Under the pieces are notes generated by a model. The model saw only the letters and a list, made by a program, of their open reading frames with translations. It did no database searches and was not told where the DNA came from. Positions 1 through 338 of a DNA stretch of 338 nt are shown here, in pieces; position 1 is the stretch's first letter; the number at the start of each line of letters is the position of its first letter. The stretch comes from a phage: sequence record AH003497.2; one strand, given 5' to 3'. A program made the translations under genes and the position numbers.

Positions 1-11
1 GGGGATACGTG

Positions 12-35
12 CCCCTCCCCACCTACCCGCGCCCC
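12..35 (-). other. Mirror copy of the G-quadruplex motif (G-rich on the - strand, C-rich i-motif-type strand on +)
   Basis: The + strand reads cccctccccacctacccgcgcccc, the exact reverse complement of 304-327. It is the same element by inverted-repeat symmetry, not independent evidence. Confidence 0.45.
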
Positions 36-73
36 TAACATTTTTATTTCCGTCTGTCAATACCCCCTGCATC

Positions 74-110
74 CGATAGGCCCGAACTATCACAAACGGA
101 AAAGCGATAG
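74..110. repeat. Triad of GATAG/CTATC pentamers: GATAG 75-79, CTATC 87-91, GATAG 106-110 (CGATAG hexamer at 74-79 and 105-110)
   Basis: Direct reading: gatag, 7-bp spacer, ctatc, 14-bp spacer, gatag. The innermost copy ends exactly at the inner boundary of the 110-bp inverted repeat. Function is unknown. Confidence 0.5.
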
Positions 111-119
111 CCCAAAACA

Positions 120-219
120 NNNNNNNNNNNNNNNNNNNNNNNNNNNNNNNNNNNNNNNNNNNNNNNNNNNNNNNNNNNNNNNNNNNNNNNNNNNNNNNNN
201 NNNNNNNNNNNNNNNNNNN
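120..219. other. Assembly or scaffold gap (run of 100 N); true length and content unknown
   Basis: Exactly 100 consecutive N characters. A length of exactly 100 is the common convention for a gap of unknown size, so coordinates and distances across it are not physically meaningful. Confidence 0.97.
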
Positions 220-228
220 ATTTTATTC

Positions 229-265
229 CTATCGCTTTTCCGTTTGTGATAGTTCGGGCCTATCG
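229..265. repeat. Mirror copy of the pentamer triad: CTATC 229-233, GATAG 248-252, CTATC 260-264 (CTATCG at 229-234 and 260-265)
   Basis: Direct reading; the same element as 74-110 by inverted-repeat symmetry. Confidence 0.5.
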
Positions 266-303
266 GATGCAGGGGGTATTGACAGACGGAAATAAAAATG
301 TTA

Positions 304-327
304 GGGGCGCGGGTAGGTGGGGAGGGG
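304..327 (+). other. Canonical G-quadruplex motif (four G-tracts of 3 or more, loops 3/5/1 nt)
   Basis: GGGG(304-307) cgc GGG(311-313) taggt GGGG(319-322) a GGGG(324-327) fits the G3+ N1-7 G3+ N1-7 G3+ N1-7 G3+ pattern. Only the motif is seen; folding is not demonstrated. Confidence 0.45.
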
Positions 328-338
328 CACGTATCCCC

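Follow-up and report, generated by a model that had tools for sequence, protein, structure and literature searches.

A G-quadruplex pattern in the terminal repeats of phage PRD1 as a probable by-product of an origin-proximal, strand-asymmetric C/G-rich block

The whole stretch of DNA that was analysed, a window of 338 nt, certainly consists of the two termini of the linear dsDNA phage PRD1 (Tectiviridae, Alphatectivirus), with the interior of the genome masked by N. Its arms carry the 110-bp inverted terminal repeat (ITR) that holds the origin of protein-primed replication, and the PRD1 ITR/origin is an element that has already been known since the 1980s. A sequence-only reading had singled out a G-quadruplex (G4) pattern at each outer end and had linked it to an assembly break and to recombination. 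The canonical, high-scoring pattern and the shared polarity of its two copies were confirmed, whereas the assembly break and the role in recombination were not, and the four-tract pattern turned out not to be conserved. Judged from the aligned termini, the conserved feature appears to be a strand-asymmetric C/G-rich block that adjoins the core origin, and not a G-quadruplex. The PRD1 G4 pattern is thus probably a by-product of a selected strand-asymmetric GC-rich duplex adjoining the core origin, with an AT-rich spacer beyond it, and as a canonical pattern this by-product would be specific to the PRD1 lineage.

Identity and layout of the window

The window is built of 119 nt, 100 N and a further 119 nt. 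The outer 110 nt of both arms are perfect reverse complements, and the arms differ after nt 110, where GCGATAG is followed by CCCAAAACA on the left and by GAATAAAAT on the right. In a blastn search of a phage collection, both arms matched Enterobacteria phage PRD1 with 100% identity, positions 1-119 at nt 1-119 and positions 220-338 at nt 14809-14927. The PRD1 records that match the arms are NC_001421.2 and AY848689.1 (both 14,927 bp) as well as the older M22161.1 and M30146.1. M22161.1 is annotated with the 5' inverted terminal repeat at nt 1-110 and a promoter region at nt 111-232. The first CDS of PRD1 (233-1012) encodes P8, the terminal protein, and the last one (14205-14687, minus strand) the SSB P12. 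The genes for protein priming are masked in the window and are present at 233-2677 of the matching PRD1 record.

The location of the arms at the extreme ends of the linear ~15-kb PRD1 genome is that of an alphatectivirus ITR, and the terminal reiteration is present as GGGG at 1-4 and CCCC at 335-338. An Rfam scan of the window returned nothing, even at E <= 10, and the plasmid collection yielded only 31-nt chance matches (E = 4). The earlier reading had described a gap with two outer arms and had not recognised them; what looked like an odd palindromic mini-scaffold is a classic phage terminal repeat with its origin. The features of the window are compiled in Table 1.

Table 1. Features of the 338-nt window, in window coordinates
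Feature	Position	Strand	Basis
Left ITR, PRD1 nt 1-110	1..110	+	100% match; M22161.1 annotation; exact 110-nt repeat
Right ITR, PRD1 nt 14818-14927	229..338	-	100% match to NC_001421.2; reverse complement of 1-110
Unique left flank; the early promoter region, upstream of the terminal-protein gene, starts here	111..119	+	divergence of the arms; M22161.1
Run of 100 N replacing PRD1 nt 120-14808 (14.7 kb interior)	120..219	.	arm mapping
Unique right flank, past the 5' end of gene XII (SSB P12), which is transcribed leftward	220..228	+	PRD1 match
Canonical G4 pattern GGGGCGCGGGTAGGTGGGGAGGGG, right end, 3'-ending (template) strand	304..327	+	regex; G4Hunter
Canonical G4 pattern, mirror, left end, 3'-ending (template) strand	12..35	-	regex; G4Hunter
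Invariant terminal core GGGGATACGTGCCCCTCC, including the GGGG/3'-CCCC reiteration for sliding-back	1..18	+	identical in 8/8 genomes with complete termini
Same invariant core, right end; + strand ends in the 3'-CCCC template	321..338	-	alignment; tract map
Fast-evolving C-rich block, composition held	19..35	+	eight haplotypes
Same variable block, right end, G-rich on the + strand	304..320	-	alignment; tract map
Variable AT-rich spacer (mirror 292-303)	36..47	+	alignment
Conserved inner ITR with the inverted repeat TTTCCGTCTGT (47-57) / ACAAACGGAAA (92-102) (mirror 237-292)	47..102	+	alignment

The four-tract pattern and its chance expectation

A canonical G4 pattern (PQS) was defined as four runs of at least three G with loops of 1-7 nt. 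A regular expression search found such a pattern at the right end, with G-tracts at 304-307, 311-313, 319-322 and 324-327 and the loops of 3, 5 and 1 nt that had been read from the letters alone. The left end contains its exact reverse complement, with C-tracts of the + strand at 12-15, 17-20, 26-28 and 32-35, so that the mirror copy, too, had been described correctly as G-rich when read outward. The two copies count as one event because the arms form a perfect 110-nt inverted repeat. At both ends the G-rich strand runs 5'->3' outward and is the 3'-ending template strand of the terminus.

Scoring with G4Hunter, which had been proposed as a check, yielded 2.5 over the 24 nt of the motif and 2.4 in a 25-nt window (with negative sign at 12-35). 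In the test set of the G4Hunter authors, precision was >90% at a threshold of 1.5, and there were zero false positives at 1.7 (PMC4770238). Since the score of the motif exceeds these published thresholds, a G4 fold in vitro is well predicted for the isolated single-stranded PRD1 oligonucleotide.

The frequency of the pattern was compared with that in shuffled sequences. Dinucleotide shuffles of the 110-nt ITR contained a canonical PQS in 9.8% of the cases, and this fraction rose to 17% for shuffles of nt 1-40 and to 38% for shuffles of nt 11-37. Shuffles of the whole genome, with one ITR included, contained 0.48 PQS on average, and one or more were present in 38% of these shuffles. The real PRD1 genome has exactly one PQS per ITR and none in the interior. 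These shuffle frequencies show that, given the C-rich block, the four-tract pattern is not beyond chance. The local composition itself is unusual, with 71-80% C over 24-25 nt of the 5' strand.

Conservation of the terminal repeats across alphatectiviruses

Both termini of eleven alphatectivirus genomes were aligned, and further truncated records were added. The termini are complete in eight genomes (PRD1, PR4, PR5, PR772, L17, PR3, CSP1 and RH-42-1), which have five distinct terminal sequences. Three zones can be distinguished within the ITR: an invariant one at nt 1-18, a variable one at nt ~19-47, and an inner one that is mostly conserved among the classic isolates. The end-proximal tract of the G4 pattern (nt 12-15) and half of the next tract fall within the invariant 18-nt core; the other half of that second tract, together with the complete tracts 3 and 4, falls within nt 19-35.

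In the variable block at nt 19-35, eight haplotypes were found, with 5-8 differences per 17-19 nt between groups (30-45% divergence). The C content is held at 65-79%, and T is nearly absent. A crude simulation of random substitution predicted a drop to about 7-9 C/17 (P = 0.0003-0.035 per pair). On the evidence of this alignment, the composition of the block is maintained, but its sequence is not. The "variable" part of the ITR would therefore not be free: a strong C/G strand asymmetry persists through the turnover of its sequence.

The block is followed by a sharp change in composition; in PRD1, the GC content is 0.73 over nt 1-37 versus 0.15 over nt 38-50. The spacer at 36-47 is T-rich in PRD1 and PR5 (TAACATTTTTAT) and A-rich in the others (TACCAAAATAAT or TACCAAAATTAT). 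It thus keeps its AT-richness but not its strand identity, unlike the strictly strand-asymmetric C block.

PRD1 alone has four tracts of at least three G, whereas the other four terminal sequence types have three. No canonical PQS was found in the genomes of PR5, CSP1, PR772, PR4, RH-42-1, L17 and PR3, even when loops of up to 12 nt were allowed; each of these seven has three runs of at least three G plus several GG doublets. The C runs of the relatives tend to be broken into CC doublets, e.g., in CCACCGCCACC. Nevertheless, the ITR block is the strongest G4Hunter region in 8/8 genomes, with scores of 2.2-2.68 versus 1.7-2.04 for the next best region. The only other PRD1 regions with |G4Hunter| >= 1.5 are ~3728-3765 (-) and ~12661-12727 (+). 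They fall in genes II and VII/XIV and recur at corresponding sites in all relatives, and neither is a canonical PQS.

The occurrence of the canonical pattern was also evaluated haplotype by haplotype, by shuffling the variable part alone while the invariant core was held fixed. Under this regime the share of shuffles with a canonical PQS was lowest for CSP1 (33%), followed by PRD1 and PR5 (59% each), the PR772 type (71%), the L17 type (90%) and the PKJ types (91-93%). The observed numbers were 1 of the 5 complete terminal haplotypes versus 3.1 expected (P<=0.052) and, when truncated records were completed with the invariant core, 3 of 8 haplotypes versus 5.9 expected (P<=0.019); both P values are optimistic and overstate independence, because the haplotypes form about two clades. 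The canonical G4 occurs no more often than composition predicts, but somewhat less often. Neither the conservation of four tracts in relatives nor an occurrence above composition, both of which would mark a selected G4, was observed, and the haplotype statistics clearly do not point to any selection for a canonical G4. With one bulge of 1 nt allowed, 8/8 variants can be written as a three-tetrad G4. However, this competence is uninformative because 89-100% of the composition-matched shuffles are also competent.

The inner part of the ITR shows several peculiarities. The perfect ITR comprises 110-111 nt in PRD1, PR5, CSP1, PR772, PR4 and RH-42-1. In L17 and PR3 the two copies agree over 90-91 nt and then differ by one mismatch at about nt 91 (CTATCAC versus CTAACAC), and such non-identical copies are unusual given the reported homogenisation of the PRD1 ITRs. 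PR3 also has an extra 5' T ahead of the GGGG at both ends. An 11-nt inverted repeat lies at 47-57 / 92-102 (mirror 237-247 / 282-292), and a 14-nt direct repeat, CGATAGGCCCGAAC / CGATAGCCCAAAAC, lies at 74-87 / 105-118, with the second copy crossing the ITR boundary. Both are conserved in the classic isolates, and they could be putative protein-binding sites. In PRDwine and PRDchartreuse, the first arm of the inverted repeat is replaced by ATCTGGCCGCGT and ATCTAGCCGCGT, respectively.

Scans of viral, metagenome and genome collections yielded no new ITR lineage. The conserved 19-mer ACAAACGGAAAAGCGATAG had 8 matches in the metagenome scan, seven of which were chance matches in unrelated contigs and one of which was the contig already known from IMG/VR. 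In the genome scan, the invariant 18-mer had 7 matches in unrelated taxa versus about 17 expected by chance; a Streptomyces match that seemed to lie near a chromosome end is really located at 1.096 Mb and was discarded. Scans of viral contigs for the DNA pattern and for homology to the terminal protein returned only PR4-like or truncated close relatives. Vibrio autolykivirus 1.020.O, which has a terminal protein and 37% polymerase identity, has no G/C-asymmetric block in its ITR (maximum |G4Hunter| 0.5). The most diverged PRD1-like genome in the collection is Pseudomonas phage LNA9 (OM630588.1; polymerase 78% identity). Its record (vB_PputP_LNA9; 14,342 bp) is labelled circular and complete, but it starts and ends inside genes, and the terminal-protein gene appears to be cut. 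It was rejected as an additional ITR lineage, being falsely circular, truncated and devoid of an ITR. The C/G block accordingly seems to be a feature of the alphatectiviruses, at a comparative depth that is shallow.

The end points of the truncated records are scattered (ITR nt 10, 17, ~20, 30, 32, 44, 111 and others), and the depositing authors ascribe the truncated ends to protein-capped 5' ends (PMC11211187). A different problem concerns PP495480.1 (Salmonella phage PKJ.Vi.20.1), deposited as a complete genome, the last ~85 nt of which (~14814-14896) resemble Illumina/Nextera adapter and poly-A/T and not an ITR end. To judge from these letters, the end of this public record looks like adapter contamination.

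Position of the block at the origin, alternative explanations and known systems

In PRD1, the complex of terminal protein and DNA polymerase (P8/P1) recognises the terminal ~20 bp, and duplex DNA is preferred (PMC5175343, PMC4150772). As summarised from Caldentey 1993 in PMC5175343, initiation takes place opposite the 4th C of the template 3'-CCCC, and three sliding-back steps restore the end. Elongation then proceeds with strand displacement (PMC5175343, PMC4150772). The displaced strands are coated by the SSB P12, and the ITRs have been proposed to anneal as panhandles, according to the citation of Savilahti & Bamford 1993 in PMC11886824.

The geometry of the ends suggests that the G-rich strand would be the template at its own origin, that the polymerase would meet the first G-tract 12 nt in, and that the strand displaced at that origin would be the C-rich copy. 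Because the G-rich strand is the template, the G-rich copy would stay duplex when both ends fire. It would be expected to be single-stranded solely where displacement from the opposite origin has run to completion and it forms the final segment of the displaced strand, and on such a strand P12 and the annealing of the ITRs (in the panhandle model) would compete with any G4.

We infer that the selected property may be a strand-asymmetric GC-rich duplex of the oligo(dC)/oligo(dG) type by the core origin, followed by the AT-rich spacer. The block would most plausibly represent an auxiliary origin region that influences the stability or shape of the end for binding of terminal protein and polymerase, or the first steps of elongation. 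Two observations fit less well with the G4 pattern as a by-product. All variants keep very high G4Hunter scores, and a bulged three-tetrad G4 can always be written; in addition, the simple idea of a GC clamp does not account for the strand asymmetry. In the literature searched, no experiment on PRD1 nt 19-37 was found, and no function has been assigned there to the compositional constraint of the variable ITR segment.

Watson-Crick folding offered no better explanation. Folds at the terminal strand end are weak (about -3.7 to -3.8 kcal/mol) and no better than those of shuffles, and a terminal hairpin was rejected for this reason. A small hairpin can be drawn on each single strand between GGGGA (1-5) and TCCCC (16-20), with a 10-nt loop and about -3.7 kcal/mol (mirror 319-338). 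On the template strand it pairs the 3'-CCCC initiation site with a G-tract and would thus be a competitor both of a G4 and of initiation at single-stranded ends. The inner inverted repeat 47-57/92-102 is the predicted main stem of either ITR strand, and this fold, too, is not better than shuffles.

The strongest alternative is that the G4 itself is functional. The G-rich 3' end, when displaced or breathing, might fold into a canonical G4 in PRD1 or a bulged G4 in the relatives and thereby regulate replication, by gating initiation on single-stranded ends, by timing panhandle formation or by shielding the 3' end from exonucleases. It would fit this proposal that every variant scores high in G4Hunter (2.2-2.72) and that the site tops each genome, that the G/C asymmetry is kept despite sequence turnover, and that the Watson-Crick competitors at the 3' end are weak (-3.8 kcal/mol, no better than shuffles). 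In addition, a phi29-type polymerase is hindered by G4 or secondary structure (PMC10783495), the PRIME preprint calls the PRD1 ITRs prone to secondary structure, and the 5'->3' direction of the G-rich strand toward the end is the polarity seen in eukaryotic telomeres. However, the canonical pattern occurs in only 1/5 complete haplotypes, below the expectation from composition, and the C runs are mostly interrupted, leaving CC doublets. The G-strand would rarely be single-stranded since it is the template, and P12 coats displaced DNA (PMC11886824). Furthermore, a structure 12 nt from the initiation site is expected to block synthesis and not to help it, and the literature searched contained nothing that ties PRD1/tectivirus ITRs or protein-primed replication to quadruplexes. 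We therefore consider a functional G4 unlikely, and a biological role for the PRD1 G4 fold is unsupported.

A bolder version would treat the G-rich block of the alphatectiviruses as a telomere-like G4 switch on single-stranded ends, which would choose between re-use for initiation, panhandle formation and protection from exonucleases. We regard it as distinctly unlikely. If true, no structured-DNA control element would have been described before it in a protein-primed replicon, and it would bear directly on systems for orthogonal replication that are based on PRD1 (EcORep, PRIME).

Alternatively, the C-rich strand could carry the selected function, as a preferred site at which the phage ssDNA-binding proteins P12/P19 or the terminal protein load, as an i-motif that opens the origin, or as a displaced strand that does not form a G4. 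By geometry and mechanism, displacement at each origin begins with the C-rich copy, and its content of 65-80% C with almost no T is maintained. In phi29, too, the terminal repeat of the left end is directly followed by a C tract of the 5' strand (AAAGTAAGCCCCCACCC, G4Hunter -1.4). On the other hand, the right end of phi29 and the ITR of the Vibrio autolykivirus are without such a block, and i-motifs are unstable at neutral pH. There is also no sign of a sequence preference of P12, the structures of which were solved on poly(dT) and repeat oligonucleotides (PMC11886824). A function of the C-rich strand is in our view very unlikely.

Two further explanations have a negligible probability and were refuted. 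An assembly artefact, in which the arms would be a chimera produced by folding back, or one contig joined by scaffolding to its reverse complement, with the break due to polymerase stalling at the G4, is suggested by the short record with reverse-complementary arms around exactly 100 N, which resembles a scaffold gap, and by the many deposited alphatectivirus assemblies that are truncated at their ends, but the arms match the true ends of independent complete PRD1 genomes, including Sanger-era entries with an annotated ITR, they diverge past nt 110 into the correct unique flanks, the N replace 14.7 kb of known interior, and the truncation points elsewhere are scattered and ascribed to protein-capped 5' ends (PMC11211187). 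Ordinary coding sequence of a Gly/Pro-rich protein, which had been named as a finding that could overturn the G4 proposal, might be read into the NCC-like triplet texture (e.g., CC ACC CCC ACC GCC ACC CCC in L17), but the ITR lies outside all annotated genes (first CDS 233-1012, last 14205-14687), the window's sole ORF of 20 aa or more (44-115, -, 23 aa) is off the motif, and the relatives differ by a 1-nt indel within the block.

Two modest points are new, the compositional constraint on the "variable" segment of the ITR and the telomere-like polarity of its G-rich strand. PRD1 ITRs serve as origins in platforms for orthogonal replication and continuous evolution (EcORep, PRIME). Work with such origins could be influenced by a stable G4-prone 3' end, in PCR, synthesis and sequencing and possibly in copy number; substituting the sequence of a relative such as PR5 or PR772 could remove this feature.

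Comparison with known systems leaves no doubt about the element itself: nothing differs from the Alphatectivirus ITR of PRD1, to which the window corresponds in its identical sequence, the 110-bp ITR, the GGGG/3'-CCCC ends and the shared 18-nt core. The G4 upstream of pilE in Neisseria had been cited as a precedent of another sequence. The sequence does differ, and a role as a recombination element is unsupported in the context of a lytic phage origin. Both are intramolecular three-tetrad motifs with short loops in prokaryotic systems. The pilE G4 is chromosomal, depends on a small RNA being transcribed and serves RecA-dependent gene conversion, whereas the PRD1 site is a non-coding terminus of a lytic phage and lacks the pilE-type setting.

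With eukaryotic telomeres, the PRD1 ends share the G-rich strand that runs 5'->3' toward both ends of the molecule and the potential to form a G4. Unlike telomeres, they have no tandem repeats, 3' overhang or telomerase; a terminal protein is covalently attached to the blunt ends as a cap, and their replication is protein-primed.

The adenovirus ITR is similar in being protein-primed and about 100 bp long, with a less conserved GC-rich part further in. It has no sequence similarity to the PRD1 ITR, and its G-rich runs are located on the 5' (displaced) strand, which is the opposite polarity to PRD1. The adenovirus pTP/polymerase recognises a short conserved core at positions 8-17 (PMC4150772), and terminal nucleotides are recovered by jumping back (PMC5175343). 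A further difference from PRD1 is the binding of host factors (NFI and Oct-1) to the auxiliary region of adenovirus (PMC4150772).

The phi29 origin resembles that of PRD1 in its priming by a terminal protein, in sliding-back on a terminal reiteration and in the preference for duplex or frayed ends (PMC5175343, PMC4150772). It differs in that the ITR has only 6 bp, the ends are unlike each other, G4Hunter scores are -1.4 (left) and -1.0 (right), and there is no four-tract motif. At the left end (NC_011048.1 nt 1-24), nt 9-17 of the 5' strand hold a short C tract, directly after the 6-bp repeat (AAAGTAAGCCCCCACCCTCAC). This tract has a PRD1-like polarity but is weaker and absent from the right end, and its likeness to PRD1 may be a coincidence or a shared preference of protein-primed origins.
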